Shown piece after piece: positions 3,720 through 33,003 of a stretch of 64,000 nucleotides of DNA. The notes beneath the pieces were generated by a model. That model did not search any database, had not been told where the DNA came from, and saw only the letters and a list, made by a program, of their open reading frames with translations. This stretch comes from a virus. The first letter of the stretch is position 1. Every line of letters begins with the position of its first letter. The position numbers and the translations under genes are program-made. Location: positions 79 through 64,078 of IMG/VR virus record IMGVR_UViG_3300043493_000021; one strand, given 5' to 3'.

Positions 3720-6700
3720 CTATTCGGTGGTCTCAAGCTCTCTAGCAGGTTTTTCTTTTACCCCGTAACTCCTGCGGATTACCTCGGAGCGATCGAGTTG
3801 TTTCTGATCCTCGCGACGAGCGGCGCGTCGTTCACCGAGTTGCGCGGCCTTCTCGGCGGCGGCGTTCCCCGCGTCGGGGCGGAGCCAGTCGACGATCTTG
3901 CTGGCGCGGCCCGCCTCTTCGCCCGCGTCGGTCAGCATCTTCGTCGCCTCTTCGTCCTTGCCGTCGTTCACCAGACGTTGCACCTCGGGCATGATCTCGG
4001 CGGTGTCGAATTTGATCATGTCTTCCCGCTTCTTGTTCGATCCGGCGGATGGCCCATACGGATAGCCGCGCGAGAGCGAACCAATCCCGGAGAAGTTGAG
4101 GAGCACCCGGGCGACGGCGAGCCCTCGTTCCCTCGCCGTGGGAGGGGCGTTCCCGACCCAGTGCGAACCCGGAGCGTTCATCGCGATGTAGATGTCCCTC
4201 TCCATTTCGATGGGGAACATCACATGGCTCATGTGTTTGGCGGTGCGCCAGACGTTCTTCAGATCGAAAGCATCGTCGGTCGGACGGCGATAGTCATGGC
4301 CGTAGTCGTCCTTGCCCGACATGAACTGGTTCGCGGCCTTATACATCGTGCTTTGCTTGCGTTCGAGGGTGCCCGCGAAATCGGAGATCCAATCGATCAG
4401 TTCCTCGCCGACCTTGCCCAGCGGCGTCCGCATGTAGAGGTATTGCGGGGTGGATCCGTAAGGCATGACCCGGGCCCGGTTCGTCTTCCCTGGTTCGTTG
4501 TCGGCCATCGGAAGGAGCCGGTTGATGGTCGATGGGATGAACAAAGATTTGAGCGGATTTTCCATGACGTAGTTCACCGTCTCATGGAAGCGCCGGACAT
4601 AACCCTCGGGGACGCTTTCTTCCGACTCCTTGTCATTCATATAATTATAGACCGCCTGGGAAGCGTGCTGGATCAGCATCCCGAGCATGTAGAACGCGAG
4701 CATATCGAGCGCGCCCGTCCACTGGGCCTTCCCCCGCATCCACTTCCTGAACTTTTTCGCCGCCTCCGGACCGGCCTCGGCTTCGACGTGATTGACGATG
4801 TGCATCGGCGCACCGGTCACCACGTCTTTGATGATGCCGAGGTTGCCGCCCGTGAACGACCGCGAGAACAAAAGGAACTGGGCGAGGGTGTTGGCGAGAC
4901 GCGACATGCCCTCGGGAGGGAGCGCCCCGGCATAGCGGTTCGCGAGATGCGCCGCCGCCGTGTAAGCCGCCGTCGGATGCCACCCAGCGGCCAGCCGATC
5001 CTCGGCGACCGCGAGACCGATGGCGATCTGGAGATCCATGACCCGGTTCCAGAGAAGCGTATTCATGGGGTGACGGATCAGCGCGGCCATGGCCTGACCG
5101 CCACGCGGAGCCTTCCCCGCGAAGTTGGCCAGGGCGTTGCGGATGTCCACGACGGCCTCGCCCACCAGGCCGAACCGCGATTTGTAAGTGAACTCGTTCA
5201 TCAGCGAGACGGGATCGCCGATGAAACCGCGCATGACCGGTGCCATGCCGTGTGCCACCAGCGTATCGATCCGGGGATCTTCCGCCATTCTGGCTCGCCG
5301 CCCGACGGCCAGGGCGGTGAGAGCGACGAACTTGCCCCCGGTAAATAGCGGGCCCGCCCGGCCAAGCTCGACCTGAAGATGGATCAGCGGGGATTGCATG
5401 ACGAAGTGGGTGCTGACCGCTTTCACGGCCATGAACCCCCGCATCAGGGCTCCCGGAGCGGCCCGGAAGACCGCGTCCAGCGGGGCCCGGAAGGCTTCGT
5501 CGATGAAGATGGCTTGCTTCTCGAAGACCGGGTTGCCCTTCGAGTCTTCGACGACCTTCCCGTAACGATCGAACGTCGGAACCATCTTATACATGGAGGG
5601 GTGACCGGCCATGTAGAACCCTCGTTTAGGGGGGGCTCCCGACGTCTGGGTATAGCCAGCCGCGATGCCATTCTTCGTGAGGGACATGATCGCCTGAAGC
5701 AAATCATGCCCGGCGATGGCCGCGTGGATCCGCTCCAGAGCGCCGACGAGGCCGACGATGTCGTCGACCAGTTGGACGTTTGGACCATACTTCGCACGCG
5801 CCGCGTCGAGCGTGTCCTGGATCTCCTCATAGTTCCGGAACCGGGGGATCTCGGTCGTCAGGTTGGTGCCGAACGGGTGCATATCTGGCGTCGGCGTGCG
5901 GCCCCATCGCGCTCGCGGCGTTCCGCCCGGAAGGATCGCGTCGTCCTTGATGATGCGCCGCGCCTTCTTGCCGGGCTCCATGATCACCAGTTGCCGGGGC
6001 ATCCAGTAAGCCCAGCCCTCGGCGTTGGGATCGACCATTCCCCGGCTCTTCAGTTGATTCCAGTAGTCTTCCTGGATCGCTTTCAGACCATTGACGAGAG
6101 CCTTGCCTTTCGGTCCGAGCCCCTCGACGCCCATCTGGGTCGCGTCCCACCGGGCCCGCATCTGGGCCTCGTAACCCGGCTGGGGAAGCGGGGATGTGGT
6201 CGCGAGTTCACGGGCAAGCTTACGCTCGAAGACCGATTGCTCGGCGACCGCGCGTCCGATCGCCCATCGCTCGTCGATCTTCTGGGTGTCGCGGATCATC
6301 TGGGCCAGTTGGCCGAACTTGCGCTGACCCTGACGGATGTTGTTGGCGAATTTGAACGCCTCCTCCCCCGCCTCCTTCGGACCGAGGCGGAGCGGGGCCA
6401 CGAACTCCAGATAGTAGTGGCGGGCGTCTTCGTATTTCGGCTGATCCTGGACCCACTTAACCAGATCCTTGATCGGCTTCCCGGCTTCGAGCCCGAAGGC
6501 GTTATCTACTTCCTGGGTGGAGAATAGTCGGCCCTGGACTGCTCTTGGAGCGACCACCGGACTCCCTCCAGCGCCTGGACCACCTCCGGTGGGTGCGGCT
6601 GGGGCATTGCTTCCAGTCGGCGTTGGAAGTCCAGCAACTCGCTTCGCGGTTGGAACGGCGAGGGTATATCGATCATGTAGTCCACGGCTGGCTCTCCTCA

Positions 6701-9700
6701 TGGCGTCCAACGCCACGTCTGGAAGGATATATGTAGACGAATAGTTAATAATTCCATCCTGGGCCAGGAGTCGATTCAACGCATCGCCATACGCGATTTG
6801 CACCTCCGCATGTGTCATATCCCCGAGCACCATCAGCTTTTGGAAGATCGGGATCATCTCTTGCCGGTAGCCTTCATGCGATCTGGCCAGCGCGTTTCCG
6901 AAGCCGTTCGCCATGTAAGGGTTTTCGGTTCGCTGACTCGGATCCGGTAGCGATACGGTGAAGGTGTGTCCCGCCGGGATGTGGGCGACGACATTGGTTA
7001 TGCCAGGCGACGTCAGCATTTGCAGGTCGCCCGCCGAGATCGAGGTTTCGTTCGGGTGGTTGTGGTGGATCGTGTAGGCGTCGACCGCGCCGTAAGTGTG
7101 CGCCCGTTTGAAGGAGACGGTCAGCCGTTCGTTGGCCGTCCCGGCATGGATGATCCGCCCCGTGGCGTTCTCGACGACGGCGAGATGTTCAAACCCGGTC
7201 TGAGCGCCTCGGGAGAGCACGAACTCCATCGCCGCCTCATGCCCACCATCCGGATTTTGGACGAGGTGAAGCTCATCGGTGAAGTTCGGCACCTCGTCGT
7301 GCGCCCATTTTGAAACCGGTGGCGGCGGAGCGGGGGGTGCCGGTGTCGCGGCGCGGGGCTCGAAGAGACCGGCTTGCTCGACCCTCGGGGCGAACAATCC
7401 CTCGTCGGCGGCTTTCTGGTTTGGCTTCGTCAGACGTCCGGTCCCGGTCTGATCCCGCGCGATCTGGGCCTGAGCCGCCGACGGCCTCATCCCCGGCATC
7501 TCGACCTGGTTCGGATCGTTGCGGATCGTCGGCTCGCGCGGACCCCTCCCGGCGGACAAGTCGCCTTGCTTTTGTTCGACCGATTGATCTTCCCACGGGA
7601 CTTCCGTGACTTTCGATACTACGTCGTGGTGGAACTCGTGGCCTCTCGCCACGTCATGCGCCTCCAGCCGATCCTTGAAGTCTCCGACTTTATACCATGG
7701 CGGCTCTGGCTCGCCCGGCCTTGGTTCCGGGCGAGTATGAACGGTCCAAAGCGAGCCGGATGACTCAGCTTCAGGTTGATCCATTTCCCTTCTGGCCCGA
7801 GCCATGGCTCTTCGGCTGGGGACCGGCCTCATGCTTCGGAACGACCCAGGCGTGTTCGCCAGCATTCCGTTCTCGACCCCCGGCGCGTATTGCCGGGCTC
7901 CGTATCCCTCGTAGATCCGCCCCGAAGCGTCGCGGCCAAAGAGCCGTTGGATGGCCTGGACGAAGCGGCGGAAGATGTCGCGGAAGTGCGACCAGATCGA
8001 CCGGACGACGGCGTCCTGGATGTCCATCTCGTTGAAATGACGGTCCGTCATCGTCTCCGCGAAATACTCGGAGAGGTTCGTGTAACGGTAATTCTCGCGG
8101 GTTACCCGCATCCGAACCCGTGGATTGGCGGTGCCCGCTCCGGTGACCGTGACGCTCCTCATGGCCTCCGGATTTTGACCGTGCCGGGTGATCCAGTCGA
8201 CGGCATTCAGATCGGTCAGTTCCCGGCGTAGCTGGCCCTGGCCGTCCATAAACTCCCGCATCCCGGGGTTGTTTCTGAACCACCGCTCCCGCTGACGATG
8301 AAACTCCCTCGCGAGCGCGAGCCGATCTTCCCGGGGTAGCATCCGCTCCAGCGAATGCCACAACTCATGGACCATCGTATGCGGCACCGAGCCGTTGTCG
8401 ATCGCCGCCCGGAATAGAGAAACGACATGGCTCAGGGGGTCGTATAGCCCCGCCGCGCCATGGCCATGTTGCAAGATCCGGAGGCCGACATCGGTGAACA
8501 TATGCTCGCCGATGAACTGGATGAACTGATCAACCTCCCTGATCGCATCAGGATGGATCGTCGACGGTGGACGGTCCGCATGTTGCCGCGACCGATCCAG
8601 GTTCGCTTGCATCCGAAGCCGGTTGATCATCGCCTCGGGGCCGCGACGGATCACACCCACCCGAGAATTATTAAGAGCGGTCCGCATCGGGGCCATACCA
8701 CCGGCCCTCGGCGCGAGGGAGAAGAAGCCGCCCTGGCCCTCTACTGGGGGTTCTGGGCCTTCGCCCGCTTCTCCAACGCCACCAGAAGTATCGCCTGGTC
8801 GTACAGCTTCGTTCTCTCCGCGTCGGACAATCCCACGGACCTGGGTGAGGAACTGGCTGACGAGGCCGGGGAGGGCTTTCCCTCCTGCAAGGTCTGAAGC
8901 GAGCCCGGTAAGCGCGTCAGAGATTGGCCCTTTAGAACTGGCTTGCCGTTCAAGAATATCGAGAAGTTGCTCATTCTCGGTTTTAGCCCGGACGTTACCC
9001 TCGCGGTCAAGCTGATTGCCCGCCGCCGTCAATGACTCCTCGCCCCGGACCGCCGCGCCGAAGACCCGCTTGTTGCCACGCAGGTTGGCCTTCGCCCGGT
9101 CCAGAATGCGCGCCCGCTGGGGAAAGAGCGACTGGATGGTCGGGCCCATGCCCTCCATCTCGGTCTGACCGCCCTCGACATCGCGCGTATAGCCGGTCGC
9201 GACGATGTCTTTGACGATGCTCCGCGCTTGCTCGGAATTGTTCGGCTCCGCACGCGCCAGCACTGAGAGAGCGGCTACCTGCTGGGCCGGATCGGCGATC
9301 AGATCGCCGACGTGCGCCGCGTATCCGGGGGGCACGATGCCGTTGACGACGATGCCGAATGCCTCATCGCCGAGCTTGGCCAGCGCGTTGCCTTGCTGGA
9401 CCATCTGGCTCCGGGGCGGGAGCGAGGGGAGCGCGCGATCTCCCGGAAGCGCCACCTTGGCGCGAAGAACTTTGGCCGCGTCGATCGCGGTGCCGCTTCC
9501 CTCGGCGATGTTCTTGTAGGCCGCGAGCACGCGCATGTGTTCTGGCGTGTAGCCGTCCGCCTCGCGGTAGACGCGGGCTGGCATCTCGACATTTGGCTGA
9601 CCGGCGGCGGTCGCCCGGGTCGCGAGATCGTGCCGCTGGTGACCGTCGGCCACCCAATACTGACCGGAGTTGTCTTGCCAGGCCATGATCGGGCTGGCGA

Positions 9701-11816
9701 GATCGGACTCCCATTTGGTGGTGCCGCGAAGCACGCCGGTCACGCCTTGCTCGTCGCTCTCCTTGAACTGGAATCTCTTGGGATCGACCTGAAGCTGGTC
9801 GGGCCGAAGCATGACGTAAGCGCCAGTTTGCGGAGCGGCGGCGGTCGGTTCAGAGGTAACGGGCGTCGGTGTCGGCGTCGCGTCGCTTCCGATCGTCACG
9901 CCCGGAGCGACCTCGGTCGGCGTCGTCGGCGGCGTGACCGTCTCGACCGCTGGCGGCGTCGGTCCCGGCATCGGAATGACCGGGGGTGTTTCGAGCGGGG
10001 CTCGCGGTGCCGGGGGAGGAACCGGAGCCGGGAGTTGCGGTGTGGACTCTACTGGCGGGGGCGGCTGAACGGCGGGTGTCGTCCCCTCACTTTGCGCCGT
10101 CGTCGGCTGGGTGCGCTCGGCCTGGGGTTGCTCCACCGCTGGACCCGGATCGTCCACGCGAGGCGCGGCACCGGGAGCATACGTCTCATCCACCGCGCCC
10201 GGACGCCATCCTTCCGGTTTCGGCGGCTCCGGAACATTGGGAGGCCACCGCCGGTTCATCTCCTCTCGGGTCGCGTCCCATTCCCGTCGGTGAGCGTTGA
10301 CCCGATCGTCAGCCGACGGCGCTCCCCGGTAAGGACCGACCTCGGTGGAGGAAGACGCACCGGGCATTTCGATGTTGAGGTTCTCGGGATAGAGCCGACG
10401 ACCGAGCCCGATGGCGGCGTCTCGCGCGTCGCCCATGATCCTGTGTGGCGCATGGAACGCGGCCCCGGTGATCGCCTGAAGCGCCATCTCCTCGGGATCG
10501 CCGACATGCTCGGTCAGAGCCTGGGACGGGCTGAACCCATACTTCACGATGGCGTTGTCGATGATGGTCTGGGTCTGCATGATGCCGACCATCGATCCGC
10601 TCGCCGTGGCATAGTCGATGAGCCCGCCGAGCACCGGGCCTTTCAGGCCGGGAACGAGGCGACCGAACAACTGAGCCCCCGGAATCGACATGAGACCCGC
10701 GCTGACCAGGCCGCTTGCCATCGCGGCATCGTGCGCTTGCTGGGGTGACGCGCCCCTCTCCTGGGCCCGCTCGAACATCCCCTCGTAACCCTCAAGGAAG
10801 CCGACGCCCATCACTCCCGGGAGCCCGCCGATCGCCGCGCCGACCAGGATCGGGGCCATGCCGCCAGCCATTCCGGCCAGTTTCACCACCGCGCGTCCCT
10901 CGTGAGAGACGTCCACCGGGGCGTTTCGTTCGCTCTCCCTCCTGGCGGTTTCGACGATGCCACCCGCGAGGGACGGCTGGGGGTTGGCCGTGACCGTGCC
11001 GAGACGAGCTTTGAACTCAGCCCGCTGGCTTTCATTCATATATTGATAGCCGGATGGATCTTGCTCGTCGGGGACCGTCTGACCGGCGTCGATCTTTTGG
11101 ATCGCGGTCATCTGACCCGACGTCAGAAGCGCTCCGAACCGGTCCACCATGCGAGGGACCGCCGCGATGGTGGTCGCCAGCCCGGTCTCGGCACCCTGGC
11201 GGAACTTGTTGAACGCGGCCCCACTCAGTCCCTGGCCGGGAACCCTGGTTTCCAGTTCCTCATCGCCGCCCGTTTGCTCGGCATAAGTGAGGCCGGACGA
11301 GTCGGGCTGGCGCTGGTCGGGGTAGATCAGCCCCGAACGGACCTGTTCAGAAGTATAAGGTGTCGGAGCGATGTCGAGCCGCTGAACGATCGGGCGCTTA
11401 TTCGGGTCGGGAGACGGCTTACCCGAGACCGAGGGTGGGGGCGTGGAAGGCGTGAAACCTTCACTCGCCAGCCGCGTGTATTCGTCCTCGGTCTCCTGGT
11501 CCGGGGTCATGGACTGACGCCGCGTCATGGCGGGAGGTTGCGGTTGCTTCGGTGGCTCCTCGGTCGTCCACTTCCAGGGGTCTTCGGTCTTTTCGACCGT
11601 GGGTTCAGCCGTGGCTTTCGGCTTTTCAGTCGTGGATTTCGCCGGTTCGGGCGTGGGTTCAGGCGTGGCGGGAGCGGCGACCTTGGCTGGCGGAGGGGTG
11701 GCTGGACGCGGTGGGACCGTTATCCAGTCCCCAGGATCCTTGGCTCCGCCCGCTTTCGGGACGGTGACCCAGTCGTCCGCCTCGTCAAGAGCCGTCTGGG
11801 CCATAGGTCGTGCCAT
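3720..11816 (-). CDS. Giant polyvalent internal-virion/ejection protein (ParB-like, zincin metallopeptidase, JAB-like domains)
   Basis: 2698 aa. ParB-like YWVADGHQRH (~9630-9660); zincin MVHELWH (8355-8369) with downstream SEYFAE (~8055-8070); JAB-like GFEHL...IHHNHPNETSISAGD (7026-7190). Position after the internal virion genes is typical of podovirus ejection proteins. Confidence 0.7.
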   Translation of the reverse strand: MARPMAQTALDEADDWVTVPKAGGAKDPGDWITVPPRPATPPPAKVAAPATPEPTPEPAKSTTEKPKATAEPTVEKTEDPWKWTTEEPPKQPQPPAMTRRQSMTPDQETEDEYTRLASEGFTPSTPPPSVSGKPSPDPNKRPIVQRLDIAPTPYTSEQVRSGLIYPDQRQPDSSGLTYAEQTGGDEELETRVPGQGLSGAAFNKFRQGAETGLATTIAAVPRMVDRFGALLTSGQMTAIQKIDAGQTVPDEQDPSGYQYMNESQRAEFKARLGTVTANPQPSLAGGIVETARRESERNAPVDVSHEGRAVVKLAGMAGGMAPILVGAAIGGLPGVMGVGFLEGYEGMFERAQERGASPQQAHDAAMASGLVSAGLMSIPGAQLFGRLVPGLKGPVLGGLIDYATASGSMVGIMQTQTIIDNAIVKYGFSPSQALTEHVGDPEEMALQAITGAAFHAPHRIMGDARDAAIGLGRRLYPENLNIEMPGASSSTEVGPYRGAPSADDRVNAHRREWDATREEMNRRWPPNVPEPPKPEGWRPGAVDETYAPGAAPRVDDPGPAVEQPQAERTQPTTAQSEGTTPAVQPPPPVESTPQLPAPVPPPAPRAPLETPPVIPMPGPTPPAVETVTPPTTPTEVAPGVTIGSDATPTPTPVTSEPTAAAPQTGAYVMLRPDQLQVDPKRFQFKESDEQGVTGVLRGTTKWESDLASPIMAWQDNSGQYWVADGHQRHDLATRATAAGQPNVEMPARVYREADGYTPEHMRVLAAYKNIAEGSGTAIDAAKVLRAKVALPGDRALPSLPPRSQMVQQGNALAKLGDEAFGIVVNGIVPPGYAAHVGDLIADPAQQVAALSVLARAEPNNSEQARSIVKDIVATGYTRDVEGGQTEMEGMGPTIQSLFPQRARILDRAKANLRGNKRVFGAAVRGEESLTAAGNQLDREGNVRAKTENEQLLDILERQASSKGPISDALTGLASDLAGGKALPGLVSQFLTQVRGIVRRGENEAVRPGDTSGGVGEAGEGPEPPVEGQGGFFSLAPRAGGMAPMRTALNNSRVGVIRRGPEAMINRLRMQANLDRSRQHADRPPSTIHPDAIREVDQFIQFIGEHMFTDVGLRILQHGHGAAGLYDPLSHVVSLFRAAIDNGSVPHTMVHELWHSLERMLPREDRLALAREFHRQRERWFRNNPGMREFMDGQGQLRRELTDLNAVDWITRHGQNPEAMRSVTVTGAGTANPRVRMRVTRENYRYTNLSEYFAETMTDRHFNEMDIQDAVVRSIWSHFRDIFRRFVQAIQRLFGRDASGRIYEGYGARQYAPGVENGMLANTPGSFRSMRPVPSRRAMARARREMDQPEAESSGSLWTVHTRPEPRPGEPEPPWYKVGDFKDRLEAHDVARGHEFHHDVVSKVTEVPWEDQSVEQKQGDLSAGRGPREPTIRNDPNQVEMPGMRPSAAQAQIARDQTGTGRLTKPNQKAADEGLFAPRVEQAGLFEPRAATPAPPAPPPPVSKWAHDEVPNFTDELHLVQNPDGGHEAAMEFVLSRGAQTGFEHLAVVENATGRIIHAGTANERLTVSFKRAHTYGAVDAYTIHHNHPNETSISAGDLQMLTSPGITNVVAHIPAGHTFTVSLPDPSQRTENPYMANGFGNALARSHEGYRQEMIPIFQKLMVLGDMTHAEVQIAYGDALNRLLAQDGIINYSSTYILPDVALDAMRRASRGLHDRYTLAVPTAKRVAGLPTPTGSNAPAAPTGGGPGAGGSPVVAPRAVQGRLFSTQEVDNAFGLEAGKPIKDLVKWVQDQPKYEDARHYYLEFVAPLRLGPKEAGEEAFKFANNIRQGQRKFGQLAQMIRDTQKIDERWAIGRAVAEQSVFERKLARELATTSPLPQPGYEAQMRARWDATQMGVEGLGPKGKALVNGLKAIQEDYWNQLKSRGMVDPNAEGWAYWMPRQLVIMEPGKKARRIIKDDAILPGGTPRARWGRTPTPDMHPFGTNLTTEIPRFRNYEEIQDTLDAARAKYGPNVQLVDDIVGLVGALERIHAAIAGHDLLQAIMSLTKNGIAAGYTQTSGAPPKRGFYMAGHPSMYKMVPTFDRYGKVVEDSKGNPVFEKQAIFIDEAFRAPLDAVFRAAPGALMRGFMAVKAVSTHFVMQSPLIHLQVELGRAGPLFTGGKFVALTALAVGRRARMAEDPRIDTLVAHGMAPVMRGFIGDPVSLMNEFTYKSRFGLVGEAVVDIRNALANFAGKAPRGGQAMAALIRHPMNTLLWNRVMDLQIAIGLAVAEDRLAAGWHPTAAYTAAAHLANRYAGALPPEGMSRLANTLAQFLLFSRSFTGGNLGIIKDVVTGAPMHIVNHVEAEAGPEAAKKFRKWMRGKAQWTGALDMLAFYMLGMLIQHASQAVYNYMNDKESEESVPEGYVRRFHETVNYVMENPLKSLFIPSTINRLLPMADNEPGKTNRARVMPYGSTPQYLYMRTPLGKVGEELIDWISDFAGTLERKQSTMYKAANQFMSGKDDYGHDYRRPTDDAFDLKNVWRTAKHMSHVMFPIEMERDIYIAMNAPGSHWVGNAPPTARERGLAVARVLLNFSGIGSLSRGYPYGPSAGSNKKREDMIKFDTAEIMPEVQRLVNDGKDEEATKMLTDAGEEAGRASKIVDWLRPDAGNAAAEKAAQLGERRAARREDQKQLDRSEVIRRSYGVKEKPARELETTE

Positions 11817-14800
11817 CGGCCCGACGGGCCCGGTTCAGTTTCGCGCTATATTGATCGCCCGGTTGCACCCACGACGGCGCGGTTCCCGTCGGTGGTGTCA
11901 CGGCTTGCTTCGACGGGGAGGAGAGCGAGGGGCGCGGCGGCGTCGAGCCCCGGAGCTTCGCGTCCTGAGCTTGCACTTCCCTGACGACATCGGGGTATCT
12001 CTTCCCGGGGTTCAACGCCCAGATGCGAGCCGAGTCCGAGAGGTAGCCACGGATCCGCGCATCATCCAGACCCTGAGCCCGCAAACGGTTTCGCTCATCG
12101 CTCGCCGACTGGCTATTCAGGATTTGTTGCTGGCGCAAAGCCAGACCTTGCGCGGTCATGTCGAGCCGCTGATCCCCTTGCCTCTCCAGGACGCCGTTCC
12201 GGGTGATCCTGATCTCGCGCGACGCCGCCGCATCAGCCGACCTGGTATCCTGGCCGCGTCGACGATCTTCCGACACCTGACCGGCAATATCCCGTTTTGT
12301 CTCGTCTCCCGCGTAGAAGAGTTCACCCTTCTGATCGATCTTGAGGAGATCCCGGTCGTTCTGAAGATTGTGGTTCCGAATAAGCTCGTCGATCCTCCGG
12401 TTTCTTTGCTCAGTCGTCGCGTTTCCGTTCGCCATCTTCCATTGGTTGAACTCCGAGATGGCGGCGTCGCGGTTTTTCTTTCGATCGACTTCTTGTTGCT
12501 GGATACTCAGGCGTTCATCGCCTTGCCTCCCCAGCCGATCTTCCCTGAGCCCGGCGTTCTTCGCCTGAGCGGCCCGCCAGACGGCGTTGGTCTTCGCCAC
12601 ATCGCGACGGGTCGCCGCCGCCTCCAGGGTTTGTTGCTCTTTGTCGGAGAGCGCGATGCCCTTCAGCGCGCCAGCACCTACGTTCACGAGGGCGTGGGGA
12701 GAAGTTCCGCTCATGATGCCGAGGCCGACGTTCATCAGCTTTTGCCAGCCCGAGACCTTCGGATTGTCCTCCTTATCCTTATCGGCGTCGGGCGATCCCG
12801 CTTGCACGGGAGGTGCTGGTGGCGGTGCCGGAATACCGGCCCCCGTATCGCCGCCGCCATCGGATGTATCGGCGGCGGGAGGCGGCGGAGCGTTCACGTT
12901 GGCCGGGGTGATGATGCCCTTCGCGCCCGCCGGGGTTGGCGATGTGCTCGCGCCCAAACCCACCAACGAGTCACCGGGACCGGATGCCCCCGTTGGATCG
13001 GACATGGTCCGGAGGGGTCGCGCCAGATCAGGCGGGCTCGACATGCTTCGATCGGCCCGCCTTCCAATGGTGAGGCCCGTCTCCGGATCGCTCGAATCGA
13101 TGGTGTATGGATTGCTCCCCAGCATGGATGACTCGTCATAGGGATCACCACCCCCAGCAAGACCGACGATCCCGCCGCCACGCGCGACGCTCTGAGTCCC
13201 GGCCATGAAGGCCCGATACCTCTGGCGCACCGCCTCGTCGGCTTCCTTTCCCTGACCGGTCGAGAAGGTGCCGTAACGCCCGATGGCGCGCTCGTAATCG
13301 CCGCCGTTCTTGTCGAGCATCTTCCGAAGATACCCCGCCGCTCCCATGATCGCTTGCTGGGGATCCCACGGATCGATTTGCATTTCCGCCGCCGTGCCGG
13401 GCTTGAACTGGCCGATGCCCATGGTGCCCGAGAGGCGATTGTAGGCTTTCGGGTTCCACCGCGACTCGGTCGAGAGAAGCCACGCGAGTTGCTTCGGATC
13501 CACCCCGTATTTGGCGGCGGCTTGCTGAACCACGGGAGCCAGTTCGGGCGGTGGCGGCACATAGCCGGGGCCCGCTTGCATCGGCACCGGACCGTGCGGA
13601 CCTTGAGGAGCCGGTGACGCGGATCCGCCTTGGGGAGGGGCGATGATGCCCGCGCCCTGGGGGACCGTCGGCCCGCCCATGTAGCCTTCCGGCAAACCCA
13701 GCGTGCTATTCACGCTCGGCGTCGGGTCGCCAACGTCGGGGATCTTGATGTCGACGTTTTGCTCGGGCTCGGCGGGAGCGCGCGGCGCTTCCTGGGGAAT
13801 GTCGCCGCCTTCCTCGCGACCGATCCGGCCCCCGAATGCCTCGCCGCCTCCGCCACCGTCGCCCATCGAGTTAAACCCGGGCAAGTTATACGAGAAGATC
13901 TGACCCGGCACATCGGACTGGCGAACCAGGTGGCCCTCTCGGTTATAGATCGCTCCCTGATGGGTTCCGTCGCCTGGGAACGCTTGCACGTAAGCCGGAT
14001 CCATCAGGTATTCGAGTTGGGCGGGCGTCGCCTGAACGTAGCCCCCGGTCGTCCCCGGGGCACTCTGGTTGGGGATGTGGTAAATGTTGTGTTCCGGATC
14101 GTCTTTCGGCACGTCGGGCACGCTTTTGGCGGGACCGTTCGTCGCGGCGACGGGCGGAGGAGGCGGCAAGGCCACCCGGCCCTTGGCCTGGCTGGCGAGG
14201 TAATCGTCCACCGAACCAGACGGCGCGATCCCCGCTCCACCACCGCCACCACCGGTCAGTTGCGGAATGCCCGGACCACCGTGTTTGCTTTCCATGATCG
14301 AAACGCTACCGCCGCCATCCAGCCTCGGCACGTTGCGATACATCTCGTCGTTGTCGATGATCCCGCCGCCACGGTCGAAGTGAACCTGGGAATTGAACGC
14401 CGATCCGGCGGCGGCTCCCGCCGGTCCGCCCCAAAAGGCGGCGGCGATCTGCCCGCCCGTCTTAATAAGAGAGCCGAGTTCGCTATCCTTTTGCGGTCCG
14501 CCGCTCGTGGTCGCGGTTTGCCCAAAATCCCCGAAAATTTTCCCCTTGCCGCCACCCGCGATGCCTTCGGGGACGACGCTTCCCTCATCGAGCGGTTTGG
14601 TCCCGTCGAGCGGTCCGATGCCGCTGGTCGGTCCACCGAAAGCGTAGCGGGGAATGATGCCGCCACCGACGGCGCGACCCGGGATCATTCCTCCACGCCG
14701 ATAGATCCCACCAGATGATGGATTAATGCCCGAAAGGGCGGGATCGACGCCGCCATAGGACGGGGTTGTCCAGCTACCACTAGACCCGCCGCCACTTCCG

Positions 14801-16368
14801 GTCAGCCAGCCCTCTTTCCCGAAAGCGCCGCTTTGTCCGAGAGCCCCAACGCCCGCCGTCGCGAGACCTCCATACTGAGAGGCGAGGCTCGGACCCGGCG
14901 ATGTGGTCGATCCGGTTCCGCCCGACGCGCTACCGAGACCCTGGACGATGTTGGATAGCCAACCGGTGGTCTGGAACGGATACGCCTGGTTCGCTTGCCA
15001 TTCCTGGTAGGGAATGTTCAGCCCGGCCTGAGCCTGACCTTGCTCCATTCCGCCGACGCCGAGGAGCGCGTTCGACCCCGTCAATCGCGAGTTCAACGCC
15101 TGATTGCCGAGGCTTCCCATGCCCCCGGCACCTTGCATGTTGAGCCAGCCCTCGGCTTGCTTCGCGCCGAGTTCGGCCCCTTGCTGGTTGCCGTAAAAAC
15201 CCAGTTGCGTCTTGGCGGCATCCGAATACGCCTGAGACTGGCCGGTCGCTCCCCTCAGTCCGAGATCCCCGGCTGATGTCGCGGTTTGCGCCCCAAGACC
15301 CCCGGCTGATGTCGCACCCTGAACGCCGAGTTGTCCCGATGCGATGGCACCCTGGAGAGCCTGGGCACCCGCGTTGGTCGCTCCTTGCACACCCAGTTGC
15401 CCCGAGTTCGTCGCCCCCTGAACGCCAAGTTGTCCGGCGTAATTCGCGCCCTGAACGCCAAGCTGACCGGCGTTCGTGGTGCCCTGGATCCGTTGCCGAC
15501 CTTGCTCTTCCGCCGCTTGCGTCGCTTGCTGGTAGCCCGTGCTCCGAAGCTGGGCCATGATCGGATCCTGGGCTCGGGCTTGCTGGCCCGCGATGATCCC
15601 CTGAGCCACCGCTGACCGATCGCCACCCCACGCGCCGCGTCCGATGGCGTCGCCGATGATGCCTTGTTGCTGGATATCGTTCTGATTTTGAAAGTCCCGT
15701 CCCATCGCGTCGACCACGCTCTGGGTATAGGGATCCTCGAATTGCCTGATGCTATCCGGCCTGAACGTCCCGGTCGCACCCAGAATGTTCGACACACCCT
15801 GGCCGGTATAGTCGTAGATCGTGTCGACGCCCGCCTTGGTATAGTTGTCGATATTGCTGACGCCCTTGGCGGTCTGACCCAAGATACCCTGACCACCAGT
15901 CGAAGAGGCGTTGTTGATACCCGTCTGGCCAGCGGCGGTCTGGCCCCATATCCCGCTGACCCCGGCGTTCCCCGCATTGTAGATGTTGTTCGCGCCCTGA
16001 CTGGCCGCGTTCCCAATATCGCCATTGGCGGAGGCATCCAGCCGACCCATGGCCTGACCCGGCATCGCCGCCATCATCCCCGCGTCGGGGTGCGTGGAAT
16101 TATCCCAGATCGGTTGCGTGGCCCGGTCGATGTATTGCGCGCCCGCGTTTATGTAGGGATCGGAAATGCCCTGAGCGTTTCGCACGCCCTGGATCCCGGC
16201 TTGCTGATCCGGCGAGAAATCCGCGAGCTTCTGACCTGGGTAGGGCGAATATGGCGCACCCGCGACGCCGGTCGCGCGCTCGGTGATCTTCTTATAGGCG
16301 TCGAGATACTCCTGGGGAGGGGCATTCGAGGTGGTGGTCGTGTTGGTATTGCCGCCGCCGCCGCTCAT
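11785..16368 (-). CDS. Internal virion (ejection) protein with lytic transglycosylase (SLT) domain
   Basis: Start reassigned to ATG 16368 (MSGGGGNT), which overlaps the upstream stop (ATGA). SLT motifs AAAKYGVDP...LLSTESRWNP...MGIGQF...AAGYL...AIGRY at ~13270-13535. N-terminal Gln/Gly/Ala-rich region. Confidence 0.8.
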   Translation of the reverse strand: MSGGGGNTNTTTTSNAPPQEYLDAYKKITERATGVAGAPYSPYPGQKLADFSPDQQAGIQGVRNAQGISDPYINAGAQYIDRATQPIWDNSTHPDAGMMAAMPGQAMGRLDASANGDIGNAASQGANNIYNAGNAGVSGIWGQTAAGQTGINNASSTGGQGILGQTAKGVSNIDNYTKAGVDTIYDYTGQGVSNILGATGTFRPDSIRQFEDPYTQSVVDAMGRDFQNQNDIQQQGIIGDAIGRGAWGGDRSAVAQGIIAGQQARAQDPIMAQLRSTGYQQATQAAEEQGRQRIQGTTNAGQLGVQGANYAGQLGVQGATNSGQLGVQGATNAGAQALQGAIASGQLGVQGATSAGGLGAQTATSAGDLGLRGATGQSQAYSDAAKTQLGFYGNQQGAELGAKQAEGWLNMQGAGGMGSLGNQALNSRLTGSNALLGVGGMEQGQAQAGLNIPYQEWQANQAYPFQTTGWLSNIVQGLGSASGGTGSTTSPGPSLASQYGGLATAGVGALGQSGAFGKEGWLTGSGGGSSGSWTTPSYGGVDPALSGINPSSGGIYRRGGMIPGRAVGGGIIPRYAFGGPTSGIGPLDGTKPLDEGSVVPEGIAGGGKGKIFGDFGQTATTSGGPQKDSELGSLIKTGGQIAAAFWGGPAGAAAGSAFNSQVHFDRGGGIIDNDEMYRNVPRLDGGGSVSIMESKHGGPGIPQLTGGGGGGAGIAPSGSVDDYLASQAKGRVALPPPPPVAATNGPAKSVPDVPKDDPEHNIYHIPNQSAPGTTGGYVQATPAQLEYLMDPAYVQAFPGDGTHQGAIYNREGHLVRQSDVPGQIFSYNLPGFNSMGDGGGGGEAFGGRIGREEGGDIPQEAPRAPAEPEQNVDIKIPDVGDPTPSVNSTLGLPEGYMGGPTVPQGAGIIAPPQGGSASPAPQGPHGPVPMQAGPGYVPPPPELAPVVQQAAAKYGVDPKQLAWLLSTESRWNPKAYNRLSGTMGIGQFKPGTAAEMQIDPWDPQQAIMGAAGYLRKMLDKNGGDYERAIGRYGTFSTGQGKEADEAVRQRYRAFMAGTQSVARGGGIVGLAGGGDPYDESSMLGSNPYTIDSSDPETGLTIGRRADRSMSSPPDLARPLRTMSDPTGASGPGDSLVGLGASTSPTPAGAKGIITPANVNAPPPPAADTSDGGGDTGAGIPAPPPAPPVQAGSPDADKDKEDNPKVSGWQKLMNVGLGIMSGTSPHALVNVGAGALKGIALSDKEQQTLEAAATRRDVAKTNAVWRAAQAKNAGLREDRLGRQGDERLSIQQQEVDRKKNRDAAISEFNQWKMANGNATTEQRNRRIDELIRNHNLQNDRDLLKIDQKGELFYAGDETKRDIAGQVSEDRRRGQDTRSADAAASREIRITRNGVLERQGDQRLDMTAQGLALRQQQILNSQSASDERNRLRAQGLDDARIRGYLSDSARIWALNPGKRYPDVVREVQAQDAKLRGSTPPRPSLSSPSKQAVTPPTGTAPSWVQPGDQYSAKLNRARRADGTTYGPDGS
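15240..15490 (-). repeat. Coding tandem repeat with 33-bp (11-aa) period, GQLGVQGAxxx
   Basis: QGTTNAGQLGV QGANYAGQLGV QGATNSGQLGV QGATNAGAQAL QGAIASGQLGV QGATSAGGLGA. CCCTGAACGCC recurs in the DNA. Confidence 0.85.
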
Positions 16369-17066
16369 TTCGACCTCGCCGCCGTGAAGGGGGATGGGTA
16401 GACAAAGGCCGCGCCAGCCTGAGCGAACTTCCGACGATAGAGCGCGATCTTGGAGCGGATACGGCGGGCCCCGAGCACGCCGCACAAGAGGTAAACCTGA
16501 TACCCCATGTGCCGACTATGCTCATCGACCACCCATCGCTCGAAATCCAGAAGATCATCGGCGTGACGGCTTTTCCGGTGATCGGGATGCACGAACATCG
16601 CGATCTCGAAGTAATACCAGCCGTTGGAGAACCACCATTGCTGAGGATGAAGTATAACGACCGCGACCGGACGATTCGCCGGGCCATCTATTACTCCGAC
16701 GAAACCTCCGCGAAGCCGGGTTCCGACCTGAAGCGTCTCCAGGATCTTGGTATCATCCATCGGACCCATGAAGGCGGCGTTCTCCGCCAGATCCTCCCGC
16801 AATAGCTCGACCAGAGCGGCCTCATCGTGCGCGGTGGCGATCCGCACGCTCGATGGCCTGGTCGTTGGGCCGTTGAAAACCGCGCCATCCTGATCGGCGA
16901 CGAGGAAGCTCCGAAGCTCACGCCGCCCCTTGGCCGCGTCTCCATCGCCGAACCGGGCGAGTTGCTCCGCCGTGACGTAGAGACCGCCGGTCTCATCCAT
17001 GATCGTTCCTGGTTTCGGGGACTGGTGCTTCCCGACATGGGCCAGTTCTTTCAGCGCGGCGCTCAT
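16365..17066 (-). CDS. GNAT-fold acetyltransferase-like virion-module protein
   Basis: SVRIAT..DEAALVELL...EIAMFVHPDHRKSRHADDLL resembles GNAT motif A. Coupled starts and stops on both sides. Confidence 0.55.
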   Translation of the reverse strand: MSAALKELAHVGKHQSPKPGTIMDETGGLYVTAEQLARFGDGDAAKGRRELRSFLVADQDGAVFNGPTTRPSSVRIATAHDEAALVELLREDLAENAAFMGPMDDTKILETLQVGTRLRGGFVGVIDGPANRPVAVVILHPQQWWFSNGWYYFEIAMFVHPDHRKSRHADDLLDFERWVVDEHSRHMGYQVYLLCGVLGARRIRSKIALYRRKFAQAGAAFVYPSPFTAARSK

Positions 17067-17995
17067 CGTTTCATGCCGACCGGTTTGGGAAGTTTACTCA
17101 TCTGGGCGATGATCTCTTTGCGCGACGCGACGATGATCTTGTCCAGGATGGCGTGGCCCTTCTCCATATCGCCCTGACCGAGGGCCAAAACCTGTTCCGG
17201 GGTCACCACGAACTCGCCGTGCGAGAGCGCCACCGGCCTCATGTCGGCTTGTGCCCCGCCTCGGGCTTTCTCGCTCGGTTCACGGTAGGGCGCGGGAGGT
17301 GCTGGGATCCCCATCCGCCGCCCGCCACCACCTTGCGGCATGGGTATTCCGCCCGGTCCCATCTGGAGCATCTTGGTCCAGGCGTTGGCCCCGGCCATGC
17401 TATTGCCCTCGCCGAAACCGGCCACGACGTCAGCCGGTATGACGTGAGATCCGGCGGGAGCGTGGGTCATGATGTCGTCGGCGCGGCCCGCCGTCGGCCC
17501 ATGCAAGTAACCTTTGGCCCCGTCATAAGACGTGTCCCCGGGGTTTTGATTGAAATGCACCGAAGGCGGAGCCCGCTCCAGAACGCCACCGGATGCCCGG
17601 CTCGCTTGCTCTTCCTCGTGGGGTGATTGTTCCGGCATCGCCCGCTTCTGAGCCAGGATCTGCTGGATCATCTGACCCTGGGGCGAGCCGCCCATCATGA
17701 CCGCGAGTTCGGCGAGCTTCTCCGTCGAAAGCGAGGAGTAGCGCTGGGCCATGCCACGTTGGATTGGGCTCATGGTCTGGGTTGTCGGCCTCAGTCCACC
17801 GGCCCCCTCACTGGCTGGATCGACGATCCCGCCGCCCTCGTCACGACCCTGGAAGTGCTTGTTGGCGATCGCGATGCTCATCCCCTCATCTCCACTTCGA
17901 CGTAAAACCGCGTTCGCGATCCGCGCCGCGTGGTCCGACTGAGGGCCGCTCAGGCTATGGTTGTGCTTGGCGAACGACGATCCGGACCAGGGCAT
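17063..17995 (-). CDS. Conserved phage virion-module protein (GPTAGRADD...HVIPADVV...GEFVV domain)
   Basis: GYLHGPTAGRADDIMTHAPAGSHVIPADVVAGFGEG and VALSHGEFVVTPEQVLALGQG resemble the GPGTGxSDSI..LSxGEFV motif I recall from tape-measure/ejection proteins. Confidence 0.55.
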   Translation of the reverse strand: MPWSGSSFAKHNHSLSGPQSDHAARIANAVLRRSGDEGMSIAIANKHFQGRDEGGGIVDPASEGAGGLRPTTQTMSPIQRGMAQRYSSLSTEKLAELAVMMGGSPQGQMIQQILAQKRAMPEQSPHEEEQASRASGGVLERAPPSVHFNQNPGDTSYDGAKGYLHGPTAGRADDIMTHAPAGSHVIPADVVAGFGEGNSMAGANAWTKMLQMGPGGIPMPQGGGGRRMGIPAPPAPYREPSEKARGGAQADMRPVALSHGEFVVTPEQVLALGQGDMEKGHAILDKIIVASRKEIIAQMSKLPKPVGMKR

Positions 17996-23286: not shown

Positions 23287-24545
23287 GGCGGTGGTCGTGT
23301 CCCATAGCCCGAGGTGCCGAAGTTGCCGGTGCCGTAGCCACGCGGCACGCGCGGCACGCCAGAAGCGATGAGGACGGTGCCGCCATCCACGCCGCCCGGG
23401 TTCCAAAGCTGACCGCGCACGGATGGCTCGGTCCAGGGGAGATCGTTGCCGCCCGTGGTGAGAAGCTCCATCGGCGTGACCTCGCCGTAGATGAGCTTCT
23501 TGAAGCCGTTGTGCGGATCCGATCCGGGCCCGACGTTGACCACCGTTTTGTCGTTCCAGACGCCCGGTCCCGACGGCGCTTTCGTGGGCCAACTGAGAGC
23601 GTTGAATACCAAAAGGATCTCGCCGTTCCGCTCGAAGTAGGCTTCGGGCTGACCCCAGCCGTCATTGATCGGGATCGCCTGACCCCAGTCGTCGGTGATC
23701 AGCGTTCCGTAATCATCGGTAAGCCAGAGTTCCGGAGCGCCCGACTCCCAGGCCCAAAACTCCATTCCGGGAAGCAAACCTATCACCGAGAGCGCGCCGC
23801 GATACGGGTCTCCGAGACCCTGATCAAGAGACCCGAAAAAGGCTTCGCCCGGGCCCAAAATCAGGTTGGAGATGTTGCCCCAGGTGACCTGAAGCGTGCC
23901 CACGGGGAGGGGCGGCGCGGTCGCGGTCAGCGCGACCTGAGCCTGGGGATTGACCGGGTTGTAGATCAGAACCCAGCCCCTGGCCGGTTGCGTGCCGAAG
24001 ACCCCGATGGACTGGTTTGGCTTCGTGATGGTGACCGAGCGGTCGAAAATCTGGCTCGGCGTGGCGATACCCGTGATCTCGGCGACCATCTCCAGCACGC
24101 GATACTTGGCGAGCGGGTAGTATGGCGGGAGCGAGGCTCCGCCGACGATGAGTTGGGTGAGCCCGTAATTGCCCGGCGTCGTCGGACCGGTCGGGTTCTC
24201 CCTCGGCTCGACCGCGAAGCCCCAGGTGCCGAACTCGCCGTCTCCGAAGGGACGCGCGACGGTGGCGAAGACGGGCCGATAGCCGGTGACATGAGGACTT
24301 GGGCGGGGGTTCTGAACCGGGCGGGGATCGGGCGGGAGGATCACCGAACGGTATTGATGCTGAGGTTTGTCCAGTTGGTCCGGGCCCACGAGTAAGCCGG
24401 TGTCGACGAGCTTGTTACCGGCCCATTCCATTTTGTGGCGCATCTCGGAGAGCGGATACCAAAAGCCCGTCAGGTCGCACTCGCCCATCGCCTGGGGGTG
24501 GCGGGCGTTGATCTTGGCGCGTCCGGAACGGGCACGCTGGACCAT
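23283..24545 (-). CDS. Conserved phage protein (degenerate Zn-finger N-terminus) fused to a fibre-like C-terminus
   Basis: N-terminal AMGECDLTGFWY...W.GNKLVDTGLLVG...DKPQ...LPPDPRPVQNPRP. C-terminal WPTKAPSGPGVWN and LPWTEPSVRGQLWNPGG. Confidence 0.5.
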   Translation of the reverse strand: MVQRARSGRAKINARHPQAMGECDLTGFWYPLSEMRHKMEWAGNKLVDTGLLVGPDQLDKPQHQYRSVILPPDPRPVQNPRPSPHVTGYRPVFATVARPFGDGEFGTWGFAVEPRENPTGPTTPGNYGLTQLIVGGASLPPYYPLAKYRVLEMVAEITGIATPSQIFDRSVTITKPNQSIGVFGTQPARGWVLIYNPVNPQAQVALTATAPPLPVGTLQVTWGNISNLILGPGEAFFGSLDQGLGDPYRGALSVIGLLPGMEFWAWESGAPELWLTDDYGTLITDDWGQAIPINDGWGQPEAYFERNGEILLVFNALSWPTKAPSGPGVWNDKTVVNVGPGSDPHNGFKKLIYGEVTPMELLTTGGNDLPWTEPSVRGQLWNPGGVDGGTVLIASGVPRVPRGYGTGNFGTSGYGTRPPP

Positions 24546-25267
24546 CAGCCCATCCGCCCATAGATCCCAACATTCGGGATGTGCGTGATCGGGCCGGGCT
24601 CCTGATCCCGCCGGGTCATCCTCTCCCAGGCACCCTCGAAGATCTTCAGCTTGGCGTCATATTGCTGGGGCGCGAACTTCTCCGCGAGCCTCCGGGTCAT
24701 CGCCGAGACGAAGGTCTCGTAGGCTCTCCGGGGGACGTTCGGTGCTTCGCCGCCCGCGAGATTGGCGTCCTCCATTTGCTGGAGCCCAAACCACCTGACC
24801 ACCTGGGTCGGGGCTCCGATCGAGGGAACCTGCCAGAAGGTGATCTGCTGGGGCATCGACATCTGATACCAATACTGGGTCACCGTGCCTTGCTGGCGCT
24901 TGTTGGTGAGCGCCGCGTAGCCGGTGCGCGTGATCGGAACCAGGATCCGGTCGAGATCGACCTCGGCTCCATTGCCATCCACACGCGAGATCCAGACCTC
25001 TTCGAGGGTCACCAGATCGGCGGGGAGAGGATACGTCCCCTCGCCCGCGATGAGATCGATGGTGCCTGAACTGGTCTTCCAGAAATTGAACCCGGCGTCT
25101 TCCCACTCGGTAAATTCGAGGTTCATCGAGGAGCGCGCCGACATCATCATGTGCCGGTCGATGTCGGTGGGGCGGATCTGGATCCGGTCAAACGCCTCGG
25201 TGATCACCGAGCCGTTGGTGAGGAGGTAGCTGAACGTGCCGCTGGACTGACCTGGTGTTATAGCCAT
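24545..25267 (-). CDS. Tail tubular protein A / adaptor
   Basis: SGTF...VITEAFDRI...ARSSMNL...EW...G.NFW...G...YPLP.D..., followed by YW...ITFWQVP and DA......P.RAYE. Synteny after the capsid genes. Confidence 0.65.
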   Translation of the reverse strand: MAITPGQSSGTFSYLLTNGSVITEAFDRIQIRPTDIDRHMMMSARSSMNLEFTEWEDAGFNFWKTSSGTIDLIAGEGTYPLPADLVTLEEVWISRVDGNGAEVDLDRILVPITRTGYAALTNKRQQGTVTQYWYQMSMPQQITFWQVPSIGAPTQVVRWFGLQQMEDANLAGGEAPNVPRRAYETFVSAMTRRLAEKFAPQQYDAKLKIFEGAWERMTRRDQEPGPITHIPNVGIYGRMG

Positions 25268-25307: not shown

Positions 25308-25547
25308 TTAATGGCCGTATTCACCCTTGTTGTCAGCGCCCTTGCCGCCCTCGTTGTCGCCGGGATGCGAGGACACGTAACCCGGCTCGGAGACCGAACC
25401 AGCCGCCGAATAGGGATTGCTCTCAGCACCACCCCGGGCACGCTTGCCAGGATTGCCCTTCGATTTCGCACCCGTGATGCGGCCACCCTTGGCGCGCTTC
25501 TGAGGGCCTTCGGGTTTGTCGCCAACCGTGGCGGGGTTCATTGCCAT
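25308..25547 (-). CDS. Small basic protein with x-x-G-G motifs
   Basis: Start ATG 25547 with RBS AAGGA; KRAKGGRI, KRARGGAE. Confidence 0.6.
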   Translation of the reverse strand: MAMNPATVGDKPEGPQKRAKGGRITGAKSKGNPGKRARGGAESNPYSAAGSVSEPGYVSSHPGDNEGGKGADNKGEYGH

Positions 25548-32116: not shown

Positions 32117-32119
32117 GGT

Positions 32120-32359
32120 CTACTCCTCTGCGAAAATGCTGTGGGCCATCTTTGGCCGACGGATCTGGATCTTCTTGTCCCCCGGCCAGACCGCCTGGCC
32201 GGTGGCGATCTGGATCGAAACCAACGCCGCCATCCGAAGCTGAGGCTCCGCGATCGTGCTCATGATCACCGGATCCCCGGCGGTATCGACGAGCCCATGC
32301 GTCGCGTCGACGATCTGGGCCATCAGCGACCGCATCAGGTATTCCGGGATCACGATCAC
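32120..32359 (-). CDS. Hypothetical protein
   Basis: 79 aa, stop/start overlap with the upstream gene. Confidence 0.5.
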   Translation of the reverse strand: MIVIPEYLMRSLMAQIVDATHGLVDTAGDPVIMSTIAEPQLRMAALVSIQIATGQAVWPGDKKIQIRRPKMAHSIFAEE

Positions 32360-33003
32360 TAGACGGCACCGCCAACGAACCGGCCCATCGCGTCGCGCAT
32401 CGCGCCACCAGCGGCCATCGGCGGTCGCATCGGCGGACCTCCCGGTGGCATTCCAGGCGGACCCATCGGAGCCCTCAATCCGGGAGGAAGCGGACCGCCC
32501 GGACCTCCGGGAGGCAATCCGGGTGGACCACCCGGCGGCATTCCCGGAGGTGGACCGCCTGGACCCGCGCCCGGAGGCGGTCCGGGCGGAGGCATCGGCG
32601 GTTTCGGCGGCGGCATCGGCGGCGGACCACCGGCACCCGGCGCACCACCGGGCGGACCACCGTGCGCGATGACGATGTTCACCTTCCCAATCCCGGGCTT
32701 GCCCTTCACTTTGCCGCCCTTCGCCAGCGCCTGAGTGTCGTCGATCCCGCCGCCAGCGGCGCGCGACTTCCGACCGGGGCTGAACGGCGGGGCCATGCCC
32801 TTCACCGCACCGCCGCCCTTCGCTTTGATTCGAGCGTGACCAAGCTCTTCCTTGATCAGCTTTTTGTCTTCCGCCTCGTCCGAGTGAACCGCCCCGCCAT
32901 CCTTCTTAATGGCACCGCCAGCGGCGTATCCGGCCTCACGCAAATCCCGTTTTCCGCGCTCTTGCGGGGTCATGCAGTTATCCACGGATGATCCTCCATA
33001 CAC
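32359..33003 (-). CDS. Low-complexity Pro/Gly-rich protein with seven x-x-G-G motifs
   Basis: YAAGGAI, KKDGGAV, KAKGGGAV, RAAGGGI, LAKGGKV, MAAGGAM, RFVGGAV. The true start may be ATG ~32973. Confidence 0.6.
   Translation of the reverse strand: MYGGSSVDNCMTPQERGKRDLREAGYAAGGAIKKDGGAVHSDEAEDKKLIKEELGHARIKAKGGGAVKGMAPPFSPGRKSRAAGGGIDDTQALAKGGKVKGKPGIGKVNIVIAHGGPPGGAPGAGGPPPMPPPKPPMPPPGPPPGAGPGGPPPGMPPGGPPGLPPGGPGGPLPPGLRAPMGPPGMPPGGPPMRPPMAAGGAMRDAMGRFVGGAV

Follow-up and report, generated by a model that had tools for sequence, protein, structure and literature searches.

We analyzed a window of 64,000 nucleotides that covers the greater part of the 70,216-bp record of an uncultured virus (IMG/VR record IMGVR_UViG_3300043493_000021) and carries a podovirus-type structural module on its minus strand. 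A short peptide centered on Gly-Gly, [R/F/Y]-A-x-G-G-x-[V/I], recurs in a 1527-residue ejection (internal virion) protein with an SLT lytic transglycosylase domain (11785..16368, minus strand) and in three smaller proteins of the same module. This motif is a real, conserved signal beyond chance, and its sites partition the 1527-residue protein at module boundaries, where they bracket exchangeable modules. Proteolytic maturation at the motif appears to be the best single explanation for the window sites, at a probability that we put a little short of even.

The 1527-residue protein is translated from an ATG at 16368 that overlaps the stop codon of the preceding gene, and its N-terminus, MSGGG(G), is kept in homologues. 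Its parts follow in the order N-terminal domain, sites S1/S2, hydrophobic helix, S3, variable Pro/Gly segment, S4, Pro-rich linker and SLT domain, S5/S6, and C-terminal domain. The SLT domain (13273..13530, residues 947-1032) was recognized with PF01464 (E 1.1e-12; 48 bits against a curated cut-off of 21.3) and has a catalytic-type TES motif (Glu-Ser) that is nearly invariant among homologues; matches found by tblastn were to internal core, tape-measure and lytic tail proteins of phages.

All the sites that a preliminary description of this DNA had listed are present where it placed them, in the 1527-residue protein, in 17063-17995, in 25308-25547 and, seven of them, in 32359-33003. In the 1527-residue protein, all on the minus strand, they comprise a tandem cluster of S1 YRRGGMI, S2 RAVGGGI and S2b YAFGGPT (14626..14703, residues 556-581; first Gly at 559, 568 and 578), S3 FDRGGGI (residues 664-670) with S3b RLDGGGS (residues 682-688) at 14305..14379 (first Gly at 667 and 685), S4 REEGGDI (13798..13818, residues 851-857; first Gly at 854), and a second tandem of S5 VARGGGI and S6 LAGGGDP (13141..13188, residues 1061-1076; first Gly at 1064 and 1073). 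The SLT domain is bracketed by sites, as had been proposed, with 854 (S4) upstream and 1064 and 1073 (S5 and S6) downstream. A Gly/Ala-rich hydrophobic helix (14386..14481, minus strand, residues ~630-661) lies directly upstream of HFDRGG (residues 664-669). When the protein was modeled by AlphaFold2 with the homologue alignment, only the SLT domain (predicted local distance difference test score, pLDDT, ~90) and this one hydrophobic helix (pLDDT ~63) folded, and every motif site had a pLDDT <50 and is predicted to lie in a disordered linker. The N-terminal half of the protein includes repeats of the GQLGVQGATN type, encoded by a 33-nt tandem repeat at 15260-15325 (minus strand), and homologues vary in length at this place.

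Fourteen homologues of the central part of the SLT protein, at 31-81% identity, were collected and aligned. The consensus of 76 homologous instances has F, R, Y or A at position -3, A at -2 (51/76), R, P, D or E at -1, then Gly-Gly, I or V at +2 (57/76) and often P at +3. Motif units often abut as 9-residue tandem repeats, and the spacing of S5 and S6 is 8-9 residues. Matches were scored with a weight matrix trained on distant homologues, from which the window protein and its 81% relative were left out, at a flank score threshold of at least 3; expected counts were obtained from shuffles within 40-residue blocks.

The loose x-x-G-G form in which the motif had been described does not stand as an enriched signal, as [RK]xxGG occurs 3 times in the 1527-residue protein against 3.4 expected. 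In contrast, the fuller 7-mer [R/F/Y]-A-x-G-G-x-[V/I] is found at about 13 to 25-fold over local shuffles, and it is in this form that the enrichment asked for in the preliminary description holds, with 6 matrix matches in the protein against 0.47 expected (P < 3e-4; scores 3.7-10.4). S3 is the site with the top matrix score (10.4-16.2). The 204-residue protein has 4 matches against 0.16 expected, the 79-residue protein 2 against 0.04, and the 310-residue protein 1. The 21 remaining proteins of the structural module, among them a 2698-residue giant with none, gave 2 marginal matches altogether, and the 40 open reading frames (ORFs) tested from the non-structural half had no matrix matches. Within the phage the 7-mer is thereby restricted to four virion proteins, those of 1527, 310, 79 and 204 residues. 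The literature yielded no description of the motif, and a search with the motif string gave only primer sequences.

These counts bear on whether the motif has any specific function, or is a by-product of Gly-/GC-rich low-complexity linkers or of flexible hinges for threading through the tail. The motif proteins contain 14-24% Gly (16% in the 1527-residue protein), the loose form is not enriched, and DNA-level repeats between sites, at most 24 nt long, are accounted for by codon bias, all of which fits an origin in composition. We nevertheless consider such an origin improbable in view of the excess of the 7-mer over local shuffles, the absence of the motif, as scored by the matrix, from further proteins of this phage that are rich in Gly (such as a 299-residue fiber protein with 13 Gly-Gly and an 858-residue tail protein), and its recurrence in distant proteins described below. 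An RGG-box reading, with binding of nucleic acid, was also rejected: Arg is merely the commonest residue at -1, where Pro, Asp and Glu also occur, and the conserved flanks are Ala at -2 and Val/Ile at +2.

The positions of the sites are invariant while linker sequence and length drift, which further argues against a compositional by-product. Conservation of position, to which the preliminary description had looked, is borne out for six Gly-Gly sites in 15 homologues: those at 559/560, 568/569, 667/668 and 854/855 (S1, S2, S3 and S4) are invariant, and those at 1064/1065 and 1073/1074 (S5 and S6) are conserved in at least 90%. These pairs belong to a small set of invariant columns; over the rest of the alignment the mean column identity is 29%, and the linkers are rich in insertions and deletions. 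In two homologues (P0015 and P0020) a Phage_lysozyme2 domain (PF18013) replaces the SLT domain between unchanged brackets, and the S4 Gly-Gly is invariant even in these two. In P0006 and P0010 the SLT protein itself contains, by fusion, the core of the 310-residue protein, set between additional pairs of motifs; in the window this core has a gene of its own.

An exact precedent for cleavage at such a site is found in the tape-measure protein pb2 of phage T5 (1219 residues, NC_005859). Only one of its five Gly-Gly sites is matrix-positive, PRAEGGMMYP at residue 1130, with a score of 4.9. The protein is cut after R1127, as mapped by LC-ESI-TOF mass spectrometry, with a hydrophobic stretch on one side of the cut and the muralytic part on the other (Linares et al. 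2023, PMC10038345). The T5 cut thus falls at the single matching site of pb2; by a rough estimate, the chance of its falling within 3 residues of the motif is ~0.6%. Because it was mapped after R1127, the bond broken is that in FVPR|AEGG, two residues before the Gly-Gly, which runs counter to the earlier suggestion of a cut after Gly-Gly. The local sequence [basic/aromatic]|A-x-G-G-x-hydrophobic is also that of window sites, and the placement is similar, the T5 site following a hydrophobic stretch as S3 follows the helix, with 854 and 1064/1073 bracketing the SLT domain. T5 differs in being a long-tailed phage whose protein lies in the tail lumen and has one site, against eight or more in the window. 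Host involvement in the processing of pb2 has been reported (pb2 maturation: Linares et al. 2023, PMC10038345; Zweig and Cummings 1973).

The register of the T5 cut also bears on the enzyme that had been proposed, namely the JAB or zincin domain encoded by 3720..11816 (minus strand). The product of this gene, a giant polyvalent protein of 2698 residues in which a ParB-like signature stands beside those of an HELWH zincin and an HNHP JAB-like module, is not part of the motif system. On this proposal, its JAB-like/zincin module would cut after Gly-Gly in the manner of ubiquitin-type processing and so give a virion polyprotein. The giant does carry the JAB-like signature HNHPNETSISAGD together with HELWH, zincin domains have been predicted to process polyvalent proteins (Iyer et al. 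2017), and none of the six related giants, the one of the window counted among them, is without all three of the JAB-like signature, HELWH and HESVH. However, the sole mapped cut in the motif, that of T5, lies before the Gly-Gly, no ubiquitin-like fold precedes the disordered sites, and the HNHP form belongs to the RadC-type clade, for which Iyer et al. 2017 predict action on nucleic acids and no groove for a ubiquitin tail. Sequence searches of Pfam, NCBIfam and PDB recognized neither the JAB-like nor the zincin module. Among the six related giants, the JAB-like signature is present in four and absent from two, and HELWH is present in two and absent from four, with HESVH alone also occurring, though the motif is kept in all six phages. 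The giants themselves lack the motif, with 0 matrix matches in the 19 Gly-Gly of the window giant, 0 in its five relatives and hence 0 in the ~110 Gly-Gly of all six, so the processing signal is not within the peptidase-carrying protein. The proposal fares poorly because the T5 cut precedes Gly-Gly, HNHP is of the RadC type, enzyme signatures and motif are not co-conserved and the giants have no site, and we regard it as very improbable. A candidate site in the window giant, SLAPRAGGMAPM (residue ~1039), was rejected, as it scores below threshold and has no counterpart in the relatives. In the six related giants the C-terminal ~900 residues are conserved, and the JAB-like (HNHP...S..D), HELWH zincin and ParB-like modules upstream of them are swapped mosaically.

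The motif is not confined to the SLT protein. The 310-residue protein (17063..17995, minus strand) has RDEGGGI, RASGGVL and KARGGAQ at 17825-17845, 17579-17599 and 17249-17269, which flank a two-part core at ~17096-17518. Six related loci (L001-L006) each have an orthologue upstream of the SLT gene, with the motif at matching places. The 79-residue basic protein (25308..25547, minus strand) is encoded just upstream of the adaptor gene and has RAKGGRI and RARGGAE at 25476-25496 and 25422-25442; in L006 a 96-residue orthologue with three motifs again stands just before the adaptor gene. The 204-residue Gly/Pro-rich protein (32359..32973, minus strand), encoded downstream of the portal, contains seven motif-like sites; the final one, RFVGGAV, is at the extreme C-terminus of the protein. 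A 217-residue orthologue in another related locus (L007) likewise follows the portal gene, has sites at matching places and ends in ...GRFSGGAV; an atlas search with the 204-residue protein gave no usable match.

The core of the 310-residue protein consists of GRxD..PAGSHVIPADVV..GEGN and ARGG..HGEFVV, and it defines a very large, uncharacterized phage family, with 3629 clusters (50% identity) at E <=1e-3 and 738 at 1e-30, for which there is no Pfam model. The motif is present in 125 of the 149 best core-family representatives (247 copies), which are mutually <50% identical. Nearly invariant residues of the core are D41 (in GRxD) and E129 (in GE), in the numbering of the 178-residue core segment of the window. 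The AlphaFold2 model of the core (pLDDT 79.5) had no named fold match: Foldseek against the PDB gave only E >2, the VIA-wide search a best Z of 4.1, and BFVD only uncharacterized phage proteins. By these searches, therefore, the core cannot be recognized as a protease.

Phage lambda offers a compatible precedent. Its gpH is processed to gpH* and gpHC by a cut in the Gly-rich C-terminal region (Hendrix and Casjens 1974; Tsui and Hendrix 1983; PMC12617516), and the last of these, a 2025 structural paper, states that ~14 kDa is removed from the Gly-rich region and calls the exact site and the catalyst unknown. Within residues 690-790 of gpH, a hydrophobic stretch rich in Gly is followed by HFATGG, then by a short core with GEFVF and then by GYATGG, and a cut at F733|A734 would, by computation, yield fragments of 79.8 and 12.5 kDa. 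This resembles both the helix followed by HFDRGG in the window SLT protein and the ARGG followed by a GEFVV core in the 310-residue protein. A search for homologues of gpH gave only near-identical E. coli sequences, which are uninformative on conservation.

A further analogue is Tal, the tail-associated lysin of the lactococcal phages TP901-1 and Tuc2009. According to PMC11409707, which cites Stockdale et al. 2013, a Gly-rich motif before the catalytic domain of TP901-1 Tal is processed by proteolysis, and Gly-to-Arg changes stop the processing. The cut falls at a Gly-rich sequence just before the wall-degrading domain of a virion protein, and particles with and without the lytic domain result. 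Tal differs from the window protein in its sequence, NGGGNSGGGD, which is without Ala at -2 or Val/Ile at +2, and in being a tail-fiber protein of a Gram-positive siphophage with a single site.

By position in the genome and presumed role, the window proteins resemble the ejection proteins gp13-gp16 of T7 and gp14, gp7, gp20 and gp16 of P22, and T7 gp16 has a muralytic SLT domain as the window protein does. In P22, 20 N-terminal residues of gp7 are removed by the host enzyme OpdA, just before KGGKGG. T7 and P22 differ from the window in that their modules are separate genes and not parts of one 1527-residue protein. Fusion of an internal virion protein B is not claimed, as hhalign of the window N-terminal domain against P22 gp7 and T7 gp14 showed no similarity. 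Among cultured phages, the F116-like Pseudomonas podophage LKA5 has at the N-terminus of gp058 the succession RFADGG (14-19), core and FFADGG (121-126).

Maturation cleavage is favored because of the exact precedent in T5, the compatible one in lambda and the analogue in Tal, and it explains why the motif brackets exchangeable modules. The window sites would be maturation cleavage signals of the T5 tape-measure kind, placed in disordered linkers of ejection proteins, and would themselves be cut. If the register of T5 applies, the bond cut would be that between residue -3 and Ala -2, and the 1527-residue protein would give about five products together with short spacer peptides. These would be, with sizes taken from the T5 register, an N-terminal piece of ~56 kDa (residues 1-556), a hydrophobic-helix piece of 8.5 kDa (residues 576-664), a variable piece of 17 kDa (residues 683-851), the SLT muralytic piece of 22 kDa (residues 852-1061) and a C-terminal piece of 49 kDa (residues 1071-1527). 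The wall-digesting enzyme would in this way be freed from the channel-forming parts, and the 204-, 79- and 310-residue proteins would be trimmed too. The protease could be a host enzyme, as with P22 gp7, or a phage enzyme of unrecognized type.

A broader proposal can be made tentatively, although taken as a whole we consider it rather unlikely: one cut-here peptide, [R/F/Y]|A-x-G-G-x-V/I, would serve both the tape measures of siphophages and, in a large group of uncultured podophages, the ejection proteins, would split a long ejection gene product into its modules (membrane helix, muralytic enzyme and channel part), and would mark the gpH* site of lambda at F733|A734 and/or Y778|A779.

Several observations weigh against maturation cleavage and its extension to lambda. 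The ejection proteins of T7, P22 and SU10 are essentially without the motif; because this is so for T7 and SU10, the motif is lineage-specific. The two lambda sites score below the matrix threshold (-2.0 and 2.3), two core alignments compared by hhalign with gpH 651-853 matched over only 36-48 residues (P 1e-3 and 6e-3, probabilities 22% and 6%), and PF09718 (Tape_meas_lam_C) was detected neither in the whole 70-kb record (E up to 10) nor in 83 core-family members. Homology of the 310-residue protein's core to the C-terminal region of gpH is for these reasons at most suggestive. Scans of the head and ejection modules with Pfam, PHROGs and NCBIfam revealed no protease, and no cultured relative of the window phage was found, the phage and its relatives all being uncultured. 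The would-be P1 residue varies (Y, R, F, V and L in the 1527-residue protein), and the A-x-G-G-x-V/I side carries most of the conservation, a pattern that a binding peptide would fit just as a P'-specific protease would. Only 6 residues separate one site from a C-terminus, and the dense copies in the 204-residue protein would chop it into very small peptides.

The variable P1, the C-terminal copy, the dense copies in the 204-residue protein and the lack of a detected protease favor the main alternative, a serious one, in which the motif is an uncut docking or assembly peptide whose multivalent copies bind a common partner at loading or after ejection. The partner might be a chaperone, the portal or tail channel, another ejection protein or a component of the host envelope, and the T5 cut would be incidental. 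Both flanks of the Gly-Gly are conserved (Ala at -2, Val/Ile at +2 and often Pro at +3), as is the case for binding peptides that form strands; the motif occurs as tandem 9-residue repeats and in many copies in small proteins; and two orthologues have a copy at the extreme C-terminus, ending in GRFxGGAV. In addition, the Gly-Gly between the two halves of the core is invariant across 83 sequences and adjoins modeled strands, so that copy may be structural. However, no partner has been identified, and in T5 the motif is cleaved. The motif proteins also reside in different compartments, the tape measures in the tail lumen and the podophage ejection proteins in the head, which argues against a capsid or portal partner. 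On balance, docking is possible, with a probability that we place clearly below even.

The idea of the preliminary description that the sites are shared signals for cleavage or for capsid targeting survives in part. A shared, conserved signal at module borders is present, and one mapped cut, in T5, falls within it; capsid targeting by the motif is unlikely because tape measures share the motif and sit in the tail lumen, never entering the head. The window resembles the systems of T4 gp21 (with its capsid-targeting signals), phiKZ gp175 and adenovirus in having a short recurring motif common to several internal virion proteins. The adenovirus protease sites, (M/L/I)XGG|X, contain Gly-Gly, whereas the window sites have Ala and not Met/Leu/Ile at the would-be P4. 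Neither a prohead protease nor a clan CE protease was detected in the window. The ORFs between the portal and major capsid protein genes matched no protease family in Pfam, PHROGs, NCBIfam or the atlas; their proteins are very divergent, and this result does not imply absence.

All these genes lie in a structural module transcribed from the minus strand in the order terminase, portal, major capsid protein, adaptor, fiber/spike genes and ejection block. The terminase (36041-37819) and portal (33604-36030) genes are putative, assigned from position and size only. The major capsid protein (27549-28457) is weakly Mu gpT-like, and the adaptor gene (24545-25267) is of SU10 type, its orthologues in three related loci (L004-L006) carrying SU10_adaptor (PF24175). 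The ejection block is made up of the 310-residue protein, a GNAT-like 233-residue protein, the 1527-residue SLT protein and the 2698-residue giant. The four motif-bearing proteins (1527, 310, 79 and 204 residues) are probably injected by this short-tailed phage.

The GNAT-like gene (16365-17066, minus strand) shares an ATGA overlap with the start of the SLT gene, and its product has weak matches to phrog_1249 (E 6e-4) and PF00583 (E 0.019). Genes for acetyltransferase-like internal virion proteins A, of the T7 gp13 type, occupy an equivalent position (Hardies 2016, PMC4819975), and MW202675 shows a matching gene order of core protein, acetyltransferase and internal virion protein D. A 165-residue ORF between the portal and scaffold-like genes (31196-31693, minus strand) is GroES/Cpn10-type co-chaperonin-like (atlas feature score 0.93, structure TM 0.69) and has no Pfam match. 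The ~600 nt that separate the portal stop from the 204-residue gene (33004-33603) are without a convincing ORF as judged by third-position GC. Two long Arg-rich ORFs, 30952-31413 and 31686-32408 (minus strand), are probably not genes; third-position GC favors 30936-31199, 31196-31693, 31880-32116 and 32120-32359 over them.

These findings bear on how the ejection proteins of podophages and the tape measures of siphophages become a trans-envelope channel plus a free wall-digesting enzyme, and on the agent and the place of the cuts in lambda gpH and T5 pb2. A consensus common to both protein classes provides a concrete site that can be mutated in cultured T5, lambda and F116-like phages such as LKA5. 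A single cut-here peptide, if true, would name the cleavage site of lambda gpH*, unknown for 50 years, and cleavage at the motif would allow the mature virion proteins of the many uncultured phages that have it to be predicted by rule from their sequences. If the copies are binding peptides instead, they would constitute a multivalent code by which injected proteins are loaded or assembled, of equal weight for understanding and engineering phage delivery into cells.

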